Shown: positions 29,754 to 35,700 of the stretch, piece after piece
How the letters are laid out: the number at the start of each line of letters is the position of its first letter
Position numbering within the stretch: the stretch's first letter is position 1
NCBI GenBank assembly: GCA_039815375.1
Contig: JBCBZJ010000008.1
Location: 32,001-96,000 of the forward strand
DNA length: 64,000 nucleotides
Direction of reading: 5' to 3'
Origin: Verrucomicrobiota bacterium
Lineage (GTDB): Bacteria; Verrucomicrobiota; Verrucomicrobiia; Opitutales; Coraliomargaritaceae
Program-made: the position numbers

Positions 29754-32700
29754 TAAACCTTCCGACCTTCATACCCTTAACCTTCCCACCTGATGTCGCT
29801 CACACTCGAAATCATTACACCTGACGAAAAGGTCTTCTCTGCGGAGGCCGATCAGGTCGTATTGCCCACTGAGTCCGGCGAAACCGGTATCCTTACCGGC
29901 CACGTTCCTTTGGTCACCAAGGTCAAAGCCGGTGAGCTCAAGGTCATCAAGGGTTCCGACACCGAATTCATCGCAGTCGACCACGGCTTCGCCAAGGTGC
30001 TCGGCAACACCGTTTCCGTGCTTACCGAAGCAGCTATTGATGTGAAGGATATCGACCTATCCGAACTCGACTCCGCACAGTCCCGTGCCGAATCCGCGCT
30101 CAAGGAAGCCGAAGCCGAAGGTATCGACCCCTTCGAACTCGAGCGCCTCGAAAAGAACGTCCAGTTCCTTCTCGCGCAAAAGATGGCCAAGGGCCGTCGT
30201 CGGTAAAACAGGCAGCAACTATTTTCAAAACGCGGTTTCGAAAGACACCGCGTTTTTTTGTGGGGTAGGGACGCCTGCCCTCAGGCGTCCGGTTTCGTCA
30301 AACAAGAATCGGCGGACGTGTGAGGGCACACGTCCCTACCTTTCTATCAGCTTCAGGGCCTCCCGCGCATTCACGATTCGAACGCCCCCAACTTCTTTCA
30401 ATTTCAGCAAGTCGTTCTTATCACCCGTCACCAGCAAGTCTGCACCACCTTCGACCGCAGTTGCCAGTATCCAGTTATCATCCGGATCGGATGATTCGGT
30501 CCTCGGCTTAGCGATACCTATAATCTCCGCCATCGCATCGATATTCTCAAGCAGCAGACTCGCTTCCATCGGCTTGATGTAAGGCTTGAGCTTTTCATAG
30601 CCCAACACGCGCCGCAACTCATCGATCTGCCAGCTTGAAGTGACCAATTCAAACTGTCCGGCCTCCCATGCGAGGTAGAGCTGGTCGGGTGGAGTGTCTT
30701 TGGTCAGCAAGGCACTGACCAAGACATTCGTATCAAGCACCAGCTTCACGCGACCATTCGATGGCTTCGCTAATGGCAGCTTCGATCAACTCGGGTGGAG
30801 TGTCTGCATTCCGCTCCTTCACAGTGTCCACCGTTTCCCGGAAAAGCGCCTGCCGCACCGCCTGATCGACGAACTTGGACAAATCGCCCTTCTTCGCCCC
30901 CCGCATCGCGAGATGCGTGCGCACCATCCGGTTCGTCTTTTCAGGAATGACTAAAGTCCATCGGCTCATATACGCATAATCATATAAGCATACAAAAGAA
31001 GTCAAGCCTCCCGAAAAGAACGTCCAGTTCCTCCTCGCGCAAAAGCTCGCCAAGGGCCGTCGCAGGTCGGGCTCGTTATCCTTAACGAGCCCGAGCGGAT
31101 TGATAAGGATATCAATCCCTACCAGATAAACTCATTTTCAAAAACGCGGTTTCGAAGGACACCGCGTTTTTTGTTTAAGCGATGCAAGCGATTGATCGGA
31201 CCAACAGTTCAGTAGTTTTTCCGCGTCTGGCGGAATCTGAAGCTAAGACAGTTGCTCTAGAGAGTGAATCTTTTATCCAACAGGTATTACCGTATAAATT
31301 TCTTACGGCTGCGTGATCTGCGTTAGATATAACTATTTTTGCCCCAGATTCAGCAAGTTGAGTTAACATGTTTGCTAAGCGTTCTTGATCTTCCCAAGAG
31401 AAAATCCGCTCGTTGTATTTTACGAAAGCGTTGTTATTATGCTTAACTGTGTATGGGGGGTCGACATAGATCACGTCACCTTCTTTGTAATGGGATAGTG
31501 TGACCTCAAAGTCATCGTTGATGAAAGTCACTCCTTTTAATGCTGACGAAATTGCTGAAAAGTCATCATCCGGTAGCAGAACAGTATTTTTAGTTCCTTT
31601 GGGCACATTGAATTCTCCTCGGAGGTTTACTCGGTATAACCCATTAAAGCATGTTCGATTTAAATAAATCATTCGGGCCGCTTGTGAGTAAATGCCTCTT
31701 GGAGCATTAGATCTTACCTGATAATAATAGCTATCTGAGTGTTTCTCGGCATGCGCCTTAAGATGCTTTCTTACCAAAGTTGGATTATTCTTTAGCGCTA
31801 AGTAAGTGTTGATAAGCTCCTGGTTATAATCACCTAGAATACCTTTAGAGGGAAGCACGGTGAAAAAAACAGCCCCACTGCCAACAAAAGGCTCAATGAA
31901 CCGGCCACTAAACTCGGGAATGAGTTCGCGATGGTTCGACATTAACCAGCGCTTTCCCCCTGCCCATTTGAGAAATGGCTTCACACTATAGCTCCTTCAG
32001 CAGAATCCACACTTTCGAGATCTGATATGCGACCAACGAATTCCTCATAAATGAAGTCAATATACTCGAACTCGTTTAATTTATACTGACGCATCTCAGT
32101 GGCATGAGCAGGCTTTCTGCGAAGCTCATTAACTCGTTCCATCCATTTCAGATTTTTAGATAATCCCTTCTCTCCAGGTTCAGGAATATTGAAATATTCT
32201 TTAAATACAGGCCAGTTGGATTTACTCTCAACGACTTTTTTGTATTCAATAAAGTCTAGATAATTATCCAGAGACAAGCGCACTTCAGGGTCGTCCTCTA
32301 ATGACTTTTCATAGGCACGTGTCTTGATCCTCTTATCAGAGATACCGTTGTCCCAGTAAGACTTCAGTCCGTGTATACTAATCAACGTCTCGAAGATAGT
32401 TTTGTGAACTAGTATATTCAACTGCTTAAGCTTATGATCGGCATCAGCGGTTCTTTCCTCTGATTGCTCTTGCTGCCAATCTTCGTATCCTTCGGGAGTA
32501 AAATCATTATGGGTCTGCTGAACAAGAGAACATAATCGGTAATAGTATTCTCGTGGTCCACCGGCTCCAAATTGCACCTTAAATTTTGCTTCTACTTGTA
32601 TATCGGTCGTATTCGCGAACCATTCAGTCACTGGCTCGAGATATTCTTCTATCTCGGATAATAGATCGGACTCAGAACATTCTCGTGCATTAATTGCCTT

Positions 32701-35700
32701 CTCTGATTCCATATATCCAATTATTGAGCCTAGTAGCATTATATGGGCTTGAATCGCTACGTTTGTGCAATACTGGCCGGATTTTCCGATTCGCCATTGG
32801 TGTGGGTTCGCACTTTCTAAAATTGAAAAATATGAGTTTAGGACTGTATGCGCTCGCTGCAGAGTTTCCTGATCGGTAAGGCCAGATAATGGCCCAGGCT
32901 CATATTCTTTTCTCCGGAATATCGAGCCCACAAGTCTTGAGCGTCTTATGCCATCCTTGATCGCGGGAACAGTTAAGCATGTGGTTTCTGTCGGCGGTAT
33001 GCCTTGTTGGGTTACTCGATTGTAAAGCGGTTCGCCGACATCTGTATTCATGAGGCCAATAAGTCTAGCTGCAATAGCTCCGATTCTTTCCCCCGGATTT
33101 TCTGAGCCCCATTTTAACTCACCTTCGAGATCATCAAGTAAGGTCTTGGGGACTGGTTTCTGTTGCGAATTGATCTGAACAAACAAATTAGCCTCCTCTT
33201 CTTGTTTTAGTTTCTCAAAAGCGATGACAAATATGTTCTGATCTAAAAACTTATTATCAAGTGGAGCGTAACCGTAAAGGCGATGCTGGCCGTCAATTAT
33301 CCATGCGGATCGATACTTATTTGGCAGTATCAGTTTTCCAAATTTAACAGCGCTGCTTGGATCATCGCTTAGTTTCTCAAACTGACATTTATCAGTGAAG
33401 TTTAGGAGAATGTTGTTTGGAAAAAAACCTCCATCATGGATGAATTTTGATACTTGCCTCAGTCGTGTTCTCTTTACCAAGCGTTGATATGTTGGTGCTC
33501 CGTCTGGGTCATTTAGAGATCGATGGTTAACAAAAGCTATTTTTAGCATTTGCCGAGGAGTTGATACGAAAGAGTAGTATTTCTTACCGCCTAGCACTCC
33601 CTGAACTGCTGGAATCTTTATGCCATCCATCTCTGGGATCTTTTGGTTTTTGAGATATTCCGCTAAGAATTGGAAACGCGCAGCTGAACGTAGGTGCTCC
33701 GAGATCTCTAAGAAATACCTTAGCTCACGTTCAGTTAGAATATTTATATTCTGGCCCTTCGCGCGCTCTTTATCGGGAACGCTCCATACAATATTATGCG
33801 TGACAAAGAACCAAAGGATCTTGGGCTTAAAGTCGGTGCCGTAATGCTTCTTTATCGCATTGGCTATAGGTTTCTTGAGGTTAGAGAACTCGTCGATATC
33901 TTTCTGGAGGGATTTTCGAACGACTTTGTTTGCCGATTTACATTCCATAACCAGCACTGTCTCGTCGTCTTTTGCGAAGACATCTATTTGTTTCTCTAGC
34001 GGCTGTGCTCCCTTTCGTTCAATTCGTATTTTAAATTGCCTTCCACTTGAGATCTCCGGATAGCCCAACAAATATAATAGATACCAAGCCTTGTTTTCTA
34101 CAATTTCGTCGATCTTGCGTGGCCTTCTTAAACGTGTTTTAAGCTTAAGTTCTTCTTCAACCTCCCACCCCTCATTAACGTGCTCTTCTACAAGAGACTT
34201 TTTTACTGATACTACCTCGTTTGGCTTTCTGCGTTTGGCGGCTTCTCTCTTGATTGAAGCACTGTTTGTCAGTAACGGGCCTATGTAATCAGTTGTTATT
34301 CGAGGCATGTATGTAGATTTTCTTTTTTGCGTTACATGTCAAGGTGCTGATCTCGCTCGCCAAGGTGCTGATCTCGCTCGCGACGAATGTCTAAATCAAC
34401 CTATGATGCGACTTCCGTATTCAGTAAGAATTCAACAGGCGCGTGCTTGGATGCTCCTTAAGAGTGTGAGCTTTAGATATTGGAGTTATTCTCTCGAATG
34501 CTCATATTGTGCCTCCGTCGGAAAAGCTCAACGGAGCACCTTTGCGAACCTGAGGTTGCATCATACAAGCACTTCGAATTCGGTGAATCTCTTTAAGGCC
34601 TTATCGAAAGTCTGTGTTTTTGAAACGCCTTCATGCTTCGCGCGAAGTGCGACGATATGCTCGGGCAAATCACCTTTTTTACGGCTGCGCCGAATGGCTT
34701 CGGTCAGGAGACTGCCATGCTCAATTTTGAATCGGGTATCCGCAGTCACGCTCTCCAGAACAGATAGAATTTCGGATTTAGTGAGTTCATAGGCGGACAA
34801 GACCCATGCGGTCTCGATAGCAATGACGAGGGATATCCAGATGGGCTCGCCTCGACGATGCGCCTTGTTTAGCTCGGCGCGGGCGATAGCGAGTTGAGCT
34901 GGATCATCTTCGGTCAAATGCCGAATGAGGACATTCGTGTCCCACGCCTTCATGAGTTCTTGAAGGACTTCACTGCTCCGGCTTTCGCCGCCGCTTTCAT
35001 TTCTTCAATAGAGAGCCGCTTCTTGCGCTTCATGAATTTGGCGGCGGCACCGTCGCTGACCATAGGAGTTGACTGCTTCTGAAGAACGATTTTCCCAGCC
35101 TGGTTCGATTCGAATTTCACCTGATCTCCTTTATGCAGATTCAATTGCGTTCGAATTTGCTTGGGGATCGTGATCTGGTGTTTGCTTGTAATCGTTGCAG
35201 TAGCCATGCCTTACAATTTGGTAATATGTAAGGAAATGTCAAGTGGCCCTTGTCCAATCTTCAACCGTGAGTCCGGCGACTCGACCGAACTCTTTTGTGT
35301 TGTTGGTAACAAGAGCCATGGAATGTGCACGTGTGATGGCGGCGATGAAGACATCTTTCGGGCCGATGGGGTCGCCGCGTTGGGCGAGGTCGGTTCGGAT
35401 GTTAGCGTAGTGTGGGCTGACTTTGGCGTCGAAGGGGAGTCTTGCGAAGGGTTTCACGAAGGCTTCGATCTTGGCTGCGTTCTGCGCTTTTTGCTGACTG
35501 CGGCTTACGTCATAGAGCAACTCAGCGTAAACGATTTCCGGAATGTAGATGTCTTTCGGCCGGACACTTTGCAGGCGTTCCCGAATAGCTGGATGGCTGC
35601 CCTTCAGGTAGTAGATGATGCTATTGGTATCCAAACAATACTTCATAGCGCTTCGCGGGGGCTATCGGCTACGTTGTCCAGATCGTCGTGCTGCTTGAAC

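Follow-up and report, generated by a model that had tools for sequence, protein, structure and literature searches.

Among the DNA modifications known to be recognized by ParB-like NTPase effectors are phosphorothioate (DndI, SspE) and sugar-modified cytosine (GmrSD). In the IscS-DndBCDE-DndI (PMC11662687) and SspABCD-SspE (available part of PMC13251355) systems, a nuclease-fused NTPase of the ParB superfamily is gated by a self DNA mark, the arrangement also proposed here; DndI and SspE join a DUF262 domain (DGQQR) to a C-terminal HNH domain and read phosphorothioate. What DGQHR/DndB proteins do is a matter of continuing debate, according to the available text of PMC10853773. A 2013 catalogue includes a further relative, Saro_3948, as a fusion of ParB and a Swt1-like HEPN domain, "mostly active" (Anantharaman, Table 1 of PMC3710099); within the accessible part of that paper the entry is a single phrase that gives no N-terminal nuclease, Dam partner or experiment.

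We analyzed a window of 64,000 nucleotides from a Verrucomicrobiota genome, in which a gene for a large effector adjoins a gene for an adenine methylase. The effector is 30% identical to Saro_3948 over its full length (778 columns, E 3e-118; the name Saro_3948 was confirmed) and shares with that family a ParB fold followed by a HEPN domain with Rx4-6H. The label "mostly active", as it stands in the accessible text, agrees with the presence of Rx4H in 91 of 120 effector relatives. The effector architecture is thus not new to print, a relative having been catalogued in 2013. Saro_3948, unlike the effector here, adjoins a radical-SAM/ATPase/DGQHR trio rather than a Dam gene. The pair looks like a widespread candidate anti-phage system, with a ParB-like switch that probably recognizes the mark on the cell's own DNA. 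By analogy we favor, with some reserve, a restriction-modification system that works like DndI/SspE, reads m6A at a GATC-core site and carries the HEPN domain as a suicide backup.

Domain organization of the effector and its methylase

The two genes and the predicted effector domains are as follows.

31981–34308, minus strand: effector gene, 775 aa (PD-(D/E)xK nuclease, DGQHR/ParB-fold NTPase, helical domain, Swt1-like HEPN)
33712–34113, minus strand: nuclease core, residues 66–199 (E71, D109, E122, K124), from fold match and conservation
33157–33600, minus strand: ParB/Srx-fold DGQHR domain, residues 237–384, from TIGR03187, the PadC fold match and conserved motifs
32479–33111, minus strand: helical domain, residues about 400–610, from location and analogy to ParBDB (available part of PMC12065111)
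32011–32463, minus strand: HEPN domain, residues 616–766, with N727-x-x-R730-x4-H735, from fold matches and conserved R730/H735
31175–31984, minus strand: Dam/DpnM-class (D12) N6-adenine DNA methyltransferase, 269 aa, DPPY at 175–178, from profile and structure matches

Both open reading frames are intact, and the GTG start of the methylase overlaps the TGA of the upstream effector by 4 nt, which suggests translational coupling. The effector had been assigned a nuclease-DGQHR-HEPN architecture on a low-confidence model (pLDDT 61). With an alignment supplied, the model reached a pLDDT of 85.9 and a pTM of 0.75, and together with fold matches this improved model supports all three domains. The nuclease core aligned with AF1548 (Z 11.9, rmsd 2.1, 113 residues) and with Card1 (Z 9.9, rmsd 4.8, 152 residues) by VIA-align; the closest folds to this domain are AF1548, Card1/Can2 and NucS, none of which is a site-specific Type II enzyme, an observation that counts against a restriction-modification reading. 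Apart from a weak match to Hjc, no REase model of PADLOC 2.0, Pfam or NCBIfam hit the effector at E up to 1.

The middle of the protein matched the DGQHR profile TIGR03187 (E 3.8e-41, residues 234–529), and its fold resembles that of PadC (Z 8.5, rmsd 2.9, 99 residues aligned); SspE and BrxU reached a Z of only 3.9. PADLOC, as previously reported, matches only this part (DpdB, E 6.1e-26). Foldseek gave no match for it at E up to 0.001, and none came from PDB sequence searches, whether run with the effector, with a stand-alone DGQHR relative or with either of two family profiles. The helical domain that follows is, from its location, probably a DNA-binding domain; it has no clear fold match (best Z at most 5). 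The C-terminal domain had been called HEPN from its motif. The model now adds a match to AbiF (Z 8.6, rmsd 3.5, 135 residues aligned) and to several further HEPN structures at Z 5.9–7.1, values that are modest for helical bundles. Pfam HEPN_Swt1 matched 8 of 31 relatives, one of them above the curated cut-off and none of them the effector itself, and the homology to Saro_3948 points the same way. By its modelled helical fold and conserved Rx4H the domain fits the HEPN RNase class, and RNase activity is predicted.

Of the motifs that the initial annotation considered invariant, DGQHR held, being present in 120 of 120 relatives; it shares this distinction only with YQR and FxxxN, the three corresponding in the effector to D339-G-Q-H-R343, P272-x-Y274-Q275-R276 and F376-xxx-N380. 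The others varied: K106 was kept in 42/120, K124 in 87/120 and Rx4H in 91/120, and P733 differed even among close relatives (67/85), all 85 of which retained R730 and H735. About a quarter of relatives appear to do without the HEPN domain. The invariance of the NTPase motifs speaks for NTP-dependent cleavage by the effector.

The methylase falls within the Dam/DpnM (D12) class by its motif I, its DPPY and a score against TIGR00571 (Dam; E 1.9e-70, 237.6 bits) above the cut-off of 114.85; it also matched PF02086. Its nearest solved structure is M.DpnII (E 1.9e-52). The residues K9, N120, L122, R124 and P134, which read bases in EcoDam according to the part of PMC4417163 available, are retained. 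A complex prediction for effector residues 30–767 with methylase residues 1–262 scored 0.00, which gives no answer for or against contact.

Association of the effector with modification genes

The methylase lies directly downstream in 9 of 9 GTDB loci, as first noted, with the large gene frameshifted in two of the nine. A count of 57 downstream partners among 58 metagenome loci holds only for close relatives; in a diverse set the Dam-type gene was directly downstream in 41 of 80 loci. A SAM-dependent enzyme nonetheless adjoined the effector in 66 of these 80 (50 D12, 3 MT-A70 and 13 radical SAM). Among the remaining 14 loci, 13 were cut by a contig end or had a broken effector, and one (L093) had an intact effector and no such partner in view. 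That intact locus with no visible writer counts against restriction-modification. Across the family the Dam-type gene may also lie upstream, or an MT-A70 methylase or radical-SAM enzyme may take its place, and the MT-A70 swap is nested within the Dam-linked clade. The occupation of one slot by writers unrelated to each other speaks for a DNA mark and not for protein contact.

An unbiased sample gave the same association: the full effector occurred in 6 of 401 genomes of the phylum, with the methylase adjacent in all six. In the reverse direction, among 86 Dam-type loci, the 8 that scored at least 368 bits on a partner profile all adjoined a DGQHR gene, five of them encoding DGQHR proteins of other architectures, and 0 of the 78 below that score did so. 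The methylase belongs to this DGQHR-linked Dam subfamily, which also accompanies stand-alone DGQHR proteins in which no nuclease domain was found; its presence beside such proteins also counts against the restriction-modification reading. Because the partner varies and the Dam subfamily joins other DGQHR architectures, the constant link is between the DGQHR domain and a SAM-dependent writer. Effector and methylase distances were correlated (Spearman 0.50 over 51 pairs; 0 of 2000 permutations as high), catalytic DPPY was invariant in 49 of 49 Dam-type partners, and an intact effector stood beside a broken Dam-type partner in 0 of 59 loci, although broken loci are few and the assemblies error-prone. 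The pair is therefore one version of a modular family with an exchangeable partner: Dam-type downstream or upstream, MT-A70 or radical SAM. The initial view of an unnamed restriction-modification-like pair that moves as a unit survives as the best reading of its function and, for close relatives, as a description of the downstream partner, but across the family that partner is moved or replaced, and the architecture had been catalogued.

These data bear on an alternative in which the effector is a GmrSD/Mrr-like nuclease of the modification-dependent Type IV, directed at modified DNA of invaders, and the methylase is either a hitch-hiking neighbor or a regulator. Its nuclease resembles Mrr-type folds, and a related ParB-like domain occurs in GmrSD and BrxU (available part of PMC4619093), albeit with weak fold matches. 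We regard this as very improbable, given the writer adjacent in all six genomes of the unbiased sample, the dedicated Dam subfamily that tracks DGQHR genes and the correlated distances of the two proteins. Type IV enzymes, moreover, require no methylase of their own.

The family is widespread (758 clusters at E up to 1e-30, part of them not full-length), yet was missed by PADLOC 2.0. Relatives were found on conjugative plasmids and in viral contigs; no full-length match was found in the phage collection. The pair itself sits in an island with the following features.

30263–37002, no strand: variable island behind the ATP synthase operon; the site is empty in one relative (G018) and has a different insert in another (G012)
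30336–31053, minus strand: RHH antitoxin and PIN toxin pair, island cargo outside the system, from profile matches
34561–35207, minus strand: AbrB/MazE antitoxin and PIN toxin pair, island cargo, from profile matches
35239–35879, minus strand: small RHH-like antitoxin and VapC toxin pair, island cargo, from profile matches
31136–31172, no strand: inverted repeat with A/T tails just past the methylase stop, a 92% copy of the hairpin after atpC (30222–30258)
30998–31067, plus strand: 70-nt, 86% copy of the atpC 3' end (30135–30204), from sequence match

The 6.7-kb mobile island was not found in 8 genomes of the same genus, and GC content at the locus is 0.42–0.44, compared with 0.47–0.57 in the surrounding 21–41 kb; this patchy, island-borne, low-GC setting counts in favor of restriction-modification. 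The 70-nt atpC copy is probably a scar of repeated insertion at the site. The tRNA scan of the window showed no tRNA or integrase-type anchor, and a promoter/terminator scan stayed at chance level. Contigs from four runs of one study were compared, and in the source run the stretch is present with no difference.

Three PIN-type toxin-antitoxin pairs flank the system, in agreement with the initial annotation. They and the variable island, the plasmid and viral relatives and the 4-nt overlap would suit an addiction module, in which the methylase protein or its mark mainly neutralizes a toxic effector and stabilizes the island, with defense incidental. A protein antitoxin, however, would not share its slot with structurally unrelated D12, MT-A70 and radical-SAM enzymes, the catalytic DPPY is retained in all 49 of the partners compared, and the effector gene comes first in this clade, unlike the order in most toxin-antitoxin pairs. 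An addiction module thus seems improbable to us.

Proposed mechanism and target site

In the restriction-modification system that we favor, the methylase, whose family is established, would mark host DNA with m6A at a site with a GATC core. The effector would bind DNA through two modelled parts, the DGQHR domain with its ParB fold and the helical domain that follows. As in DndI, the P-x-Y-Q pocket and the DGQHR motif would make NTP hydrolysis depend on the methylation of the site: the effector would be released from marked DNA, and its N-terminal PD-(D/E)xK domain would nick or cut unmarked DNA. The C-terminal HEPN domain would dimerize and serve as a backup RNase that halts the cell if restriction fails, comparable to PrrC beside EcoprrI. 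P272-x-Y274-Q275 corresponds to P23/Y25/Q26 of DndI and P61/Y63/Q64 of EcSspE, and the spacing from Y274 to R343 is 69 residues, against 70 from Y63 to R133 in EcSspE. Since a QR motif is general to ParB/DUF262 NTPases, the regulator DndB included (available parts of PMC4619093 and PMC12065111), Y274 is no proof of mark-reading.

The same domains could serve a mark-licensed abortive infection of the SspE-like or guard type. The effector would then stay silent without the mark or infection, and its DGQHR domain, on sensing either the host mark or the loss of that mark, or else changes in nucleotides during infection, would release a non-specific DNase and HEPN RNase that kill or stall the cell, with no site-specific restriction. 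The Card1/Can2-like nuclease fold is consistent with this, Card1/Can2 being in its known setting an allosterically activated non-specific nuclease, as is the retention of R730/H735 in every close relative. SspE activation requires the self mark (available part of PMC13251355), and HEPN fusions in restriction-modification contexts have been proposed as suicide effectors (available part of PMC3710099). On the other side, Rx4H is missing in 29 of 120 diverse relatives and the DGQHR motifs never are, and the lack of intact effectors beside broken Dam-type genes is more in keeping with an effector that is toxic in the absence of the mark than with a silent one. We consider such a mechanism rather unlikely.

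The predicted target of the methylase is GATC or RGATCY. A methylase 49% identical to it, encoded on a 30,952-bp plasmid of the Zymomonas CP4 group, also adjoins a DGQHR gene, and strain CP3 of that group carries m6A at 98.6% of RGATCY sites (available part of PMC8088579). The CP3 assembly (88.9% complete), in the portion available, lists neither this methylase nor the plasmid HsdM, yet the strain shows a Type I motif, so that the assignment of RGATCY to the methylase is plausible but unproven. The methylome of strain ZM4 lacks GATC in the accessible part of PMC8432527; it probably came from a stock without the 30,952-bp plasmid and was left out of this reasoning. In effector genes with a Dam-type partner the observed/expected ratio was 1.08 for GATC, indicating no avoidance, and 0.86 for RGATCY against a background of 0.72–0.87, indicating no excess avoidance; this also counts against restriction-modification. 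Genome-wide, GATC was unremarkable (0.90) and GTAC was the avoided palindrome (0.17).

Among 160 palindromic six-base patterns, RGATCY showed the strongest depletion both in radical-SAM-linked effector genes and in the radical-SAM genes. As a tentative extension that we find somewhat doubtful, the DGQHR domain may in general read self-marks on GATC-type sites under NTP gating, with the effector as a plug-in restriction module for chemically unrelated writers. These would be the dedicated Dam subfamily and MT-A70, each placing m6A, and a radical-SAM enzyme that makes an undescribed DNA modification, probably at RGATCY. If so, the two-gene Dam version would be the simplest system for showing what DGQHR/DndB proteins do. 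A new DNA modification may lie behind the radical-SAM branch.

Comparison with known systems

PADLOC 2.0 and NCBIfam (June 2026) gave no named defense system for the pair, and no published account of it or experiment on it was found in the literature searched, a scope that leaves most subscription papers, REBASE and bioRxiv supplements outside. PD-lambda-5 also has two genes including a methylase and is described as a compact RM+Abi system (Vassallo 2022, available part of PMC9519451). The methylase matched PD-Lambda-5_B in PADLOC (E 4e-8), but the effector had no match to PD-Lambda-5_A at E up to 1, and membership was rejected. No Tdp entries appeared among the PDB sequence or fold matches; a relationship to TdpABC may nonetheless exist.

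The middle domain is homologous to DndB and DpdB of the phosphorothioate and 7-deazaguanine systems (E 5e-5 and 6e-24, respectively). The scores, however, lie far below the equivalog cut-offs (22.5 against 328 for DndB and 84.6 against 300 for DpdB), and the effector has extra nuclease domains. The 99.9% complete genome contains no match to dndC (TIGR03183) and none to dpdA (NF041059). Membership in Dpd was rejected on the missing dpdA and the DpdB score, and membership in Dnd/Ssp on the missing dndC and on an effector architecture other than DUF262 (DGQQR) plus HNH.

DpnII/MboI-type Type II systems (DpnM plus endonuclease, GATC) likewise consist of two genes, with the methylase adjoining the nuclease gene, and the methylase here is closest to M.DpnII. 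Its partner is not a DpnII/MboI endonuclease; it has a predicted NTPase switch and RNase domain, and because it belongs to no known Type II family by the REase models, classical DpnII-type membership was rejected. PrrC-EcoprrI and RloC, according to the available part of PMC3710099, likewise tie an NTPase-regulated C-terminal HEPN RNase to restriction-modification; they use an ABC ATPase, whereas the effector has a ParB fold with DNase and RNase predicted in one chain.

A ParB-like effector under the control of ordinary adenine methylation, with DNase and RNase in the same protein, would be without precedent in the literature searched. The effector shares with DndI and SspE the P-x-Y-Q pocket motif at similar spacing to a DGQxR motif, and differs from them in its DGQHR (120/120), N-terminal PD-(D/E)xK domain, C-terminal HEPN domain and adenine methylase. 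With just two genes and a mark that E. coli Dam may mimic, this compact system would make the role of DGQHR/DndB proteins testable.

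The gene pair and its insertion site

The two-gene arrangement proposed in the initial annotation was recovered, with the methylase gene downstream of that for the large protein (the effector). The pair is real and intact. The features are:

31981-34308, minus strand: effector ORF, 775 aa
31175-31984, minus strand: methylase ORF, 269 aa, after the effector ORF with a 4-nt overlap
30135-30258 and 30998-31172: duplicated atpC 3' end and hairpin

GC content over the pair is 0.42–0.44, compared to 0.47–0.57 in the surroundings. Each gene is present in one copy in the source genome, in which a search for dndC and dpdA gave no match. 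Profile matches of the effector were limited to DGQHR/DndB/DpdB models and to its middle part (TIGR03187, E 3.8e-41), the DpdB model scoring 84.6 bits where its cut-off is 300. The methylase belongs to the Dam family (TIGR00571, E 1.9e-70), and its nearest solved structure is M.DpnII. Some 30 nt before the effector start is an exact 21-nt tandem duplication (34340-34381), possibly an operator or promoter variant.

The ATP synthase operon is followed by an island, about 6.7 kb long, that holds the gene pair and three PIN-type toxin-antitoxin pairs; the gene pair is mobile. Just after the methylase, 70 nt of the atpC 3' end and the hairpin behind atpC recur as copies, an indication that insertions have happened repeatedly at this position. 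In the related genome G018 the atpC end meets the counterpart of the window gene at 37003 within about 40 bases, and in G012 a different insert occupies the same site. The site behind atpC is an insertion hotspot, with no integrase seen nearby; different inserts are also found there in G014, G015 and G016, and it is empty in G018. The left edge of the island carries a 28-nt imperfect, REP-like inverted repeat (30264-30340), and the island contains a 310-aa ORF (36008-36940) which we take, by eye, to resemble a small mechanosensitive channel. A search of 100 further genomes from the family, 8 of the same genus (completeness 80–99%), did not recover the full effector; two of the 100 gave weak DGQHR-only matches. 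The source genome as a whole shows strong avoidance of GTAC (O/E 0.17), and no 6-bp palindrome is avoided more than CGATCG (0.67), a sign of other R-M systems, now or formerly present.

Domain organization of the effector

In an AlphaFold2 model of the effector (alignment of 85 relatives; pLDDT 85.9, pTM 0.75), residues 66–199 resemble AF1548, a PD-(D/E)xK protein (Z 11.9, rmsd 2.1, 113 aligned), as well as the Card1/Can2 nucleases (Z 9.9, rmsd 4.8, 152 aligned). The residues E71, D109, E122 and K124 of this putative cleavage domain are retained in 82–84 of 85 close relatives and 87–115 of 120 diverse relatives. The middle part reached a pLDDT of 89.5 when modelled separately. Residues 237–384 match the ParB fold (PadC, Z 8.5, rmsd 2.9, 99 aligned; KorB, 7.3; sulfiredoxin, 6.2), and YQR, DGQHR and FxxxN are present in all 120 diverse relatives. 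Fold comparison of the helical part (400–610) gave no clear match. Residues 616–766 of the model, the candidate RNase domain, resemble AbiF (Z 8.6, rmsd 3.5, 135 aligned) and, at Z 5.9–7.1, several HEPN structures; such values are modest for a helical bundle. Pfam HEPN_Swt1 matched 8 of 31 relatives scanned out of 121, one over the cut-off; in Atlas clusters near the effector, HEPN_Swt1 is found in 21% of members and NERD in 15–59%. The motifs had been described as invariant: Rx4H occurs in 85/85 close relatives and in 91/120 diverse ones, so the description holds only for the close clade.

Saro_3948, a Novosphingobium plasmid protein returned by our plasmid search, aligns with the effector over the full length at 30%. 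It appears in Table 1 of Anantharaman et al. 2013 (PMC3710099), where the Swt1-like HEPN fusions include the entry 'ParB (Saro_3948), mostly active'. More generally, Makarova et al. 2013 (PMC3632139) describe fusions of DGQHR/ParB cores to PD-(D/E)xK and HEPN domains, and a link between these cores and systems of DNA modification. Our literature search found no paper naming the effector pair with Dam or testing it. The pair is a probable new R-M variant whose protein architecture is already catalogued; new here are the Saro_3948 link, partner swapping, a dedicated Dam subfamily and, in Y274, a means of testing at the residue level.

Pairing of DGQHR proteins with writers

A word search with the effector gave 1451 matches among 8000 scored candidates, and a profile search gave 758 clusters (E up to 1e-30), some of them not full-length. 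The directly downstream methylase reported earlier for nine of nine GTDB loci was reproduced. A partner census covered the best 80 of at least 529 confirmed metagenome loci, found with a diverse alignment. A D12 methylase was encoded immediately downstream at 41 loci, immediately upstream at 7, and in convergent and divergent orientation at 1 each; the neighbor was an MT-A70 methylase in 3 and a 390–560-aa radical-SAM protein in 13 (two identical), the latter frequently accompanied by a GHKL ATPase and a small DGQHR gene. The other 14 had no neighboring writer (SAM-dependent enzyme gene), 13 of these being at contig ends or broken. At locus L093 (8647-12575) an intact effector, with no methylase or radical-SAM gene seen in the flank, is followed by two small DGQHR-like proteins (weak PDC-M38A matches) and an SNF2 helicase. 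Of 30 viral loci, six were full-length, and each of these had an adjacent D12. Over all 95 loci, D12 was downstream in 51 of 67 at identity of at least 36%; below 36% it was downstream in 2 of 28 and upstream in 9, with radical SAM in 13. An even phylum sample contained the full effector in 6 of 401 genomes (one repeats a locus counted elsewhere), with the methylase adjacent in each, three downstream and three upstream.

IQ-TREE analysis of 77 effectors (quick run, SH-aLRT only, some long branches) divided them into two clades with good support. The three MT-A70 cases fall within the Dam-linked clade, where their sister is likewise Dam-linked. Effector and methylase distances were moderately correlated (Spearman 0.50, 51 pairs), indicating that the two travel together and that partners are exchanged. 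Radical-SAM genes replace the methylase at L083–L089, L092, L095, L099, L100, L102, L104, L138 (pNL1) and L139, with or without the GHKL ATPase and small DGQHR gene; their matches to B12-binding/radical-SAM families are weak, all far below cut-offs. Relatives of the pair stand in a defence-island context: CBASS (2TM effector and cyclase) is directly behind the pair at L009 (9208-10840), L107 has Shedu, and L079 has an EcoRII-type R-M set.

As a reverse test, the partner-methylase profile was used to score 86 Dam-type loci, of which 80 were viral, 2 plasmid and 4 genomic. All 8 top loci (368–402 bits) lie beside a DGQHR gene, which was found within the flank fetched at 0 of the 78 lower scorers (141–268 bits). 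Three of the eight are fusions like the window effector and score high by construction; the other five adjoin four stand-alone DGQHR proteins of 382–393 aa and one Zymomonas protein of 496 aa, accompanied by a 440-aa unknown partner. FastTree placed 55 of 56 DGQHR-linked methylases on one branch (local support 99). From the reverse test and this tree, the constant pairing is that of a DGQHR domain with a writer, with nuclease plus HEPN as one payload.

L243, 2133-5795 (Zymomonas 30,952-bp plasmid): three-gene unit of DGQHR (496 aa), unknown (440 aa) and the same Dam subfamily

DUF4433/macro-domain genes follow this unit, and Zymomonas offers a cultured, tractable host for determining the methylase target. 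At L244, L245, L246 and L154 the Dam subfamily occurs with a small gene and a stand-alone 382–393-aa DGQHR protein, resembling TIGR04172 below cut-off; at L005–L007 a stand-alone DGQHR gene is located after the fusion/methylase pair.

Predicted methylation target and mode of action

EcoDam K9, N120, L122, R124 and P134, whose base-reading roles are described in PMC4417163, align with K6, N114, L116, R118 and P128 of the methylase. This retention supports a GATC core. The base-reading segment is nearly identical to that of DpnM, and all 49 partner methylases compared have R118, N114 and P128. An indirect lead suggests RGATCY: this m6A mark is reported for Zymomonas CP3 (PMC8088579), in whose group a plasmid bears a 49%-identical methylase, the gene being absent from CP3's incomplete assembly. 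Against codon-shuffled controls, the 56 Dam-linked effector genes showed no avoidance of GATC (732 observed, 677 expected) and background avoidance only of RGATCY (0.86; controls 0.72–0.87). RGATCY ranked as the most depleted of 160 patterns in 13 radical-SAM-linked effector genes (10 versus 33 expected) and first in 12 radical-SAM genes (12 versus 28.7). This depletion is partly host-wide, because 22 other genes of these loci are also low (12 versus 22.9) and the Saro_3948 gene itself has 6 sites. RGATCY is nearly absent from the whole loci L084 (1 of 69 GATC), L095 (2 of 64) and L102 (0 of 87). The Tdp phosphorothioate system is reported to mark GATC (PMC12914056).

In 99 loci checked for broken genes, the Dam-type partner of an intact effector was never broken (56 partners intact, 3 truncated at a contig end); nine effectors were broken, and the two frameshifted methylases both lay beside broken effectors. 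This pattern fits an effector that is toxic without the mark, but the counts are small and errors of assembly tend to cluster. The main rival, mark-licensed abortive infection, draws on the resemblance of the nuclease to Card1 and on the QR motif common to all these NTPases (PMC4619093, PMC12065111); we regard it as rather unlikely.

We lean towards a DndI-like R-M system that reads m6A. The analysis establishes the folds, the motifs, the gene linkage and the mobility, whereas methylation target, mark reading, cleavage, RNase activity and defence are predictions. As described in PMC11662687, DndI joins a ParB-like NTPase to a nickase and is toxic when the self mark is lacking; through a P23/Y25/Q26 pocket, this mark stimulates its ATP hydrolysis and frees it from self DNA. 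EcSspE uses P61/Y63/Q64 with R133 and is described in PMC13251355 as active only with the mark. The effector has P272-T-Y274-Q275 and R343 at nearly equal spacing, and on this likeness the proposal is based. In such a defence system m6A would be the self mark read by the effector in a DndI-like manner, and the HEPN domain would act as a backup, as in PrrC.
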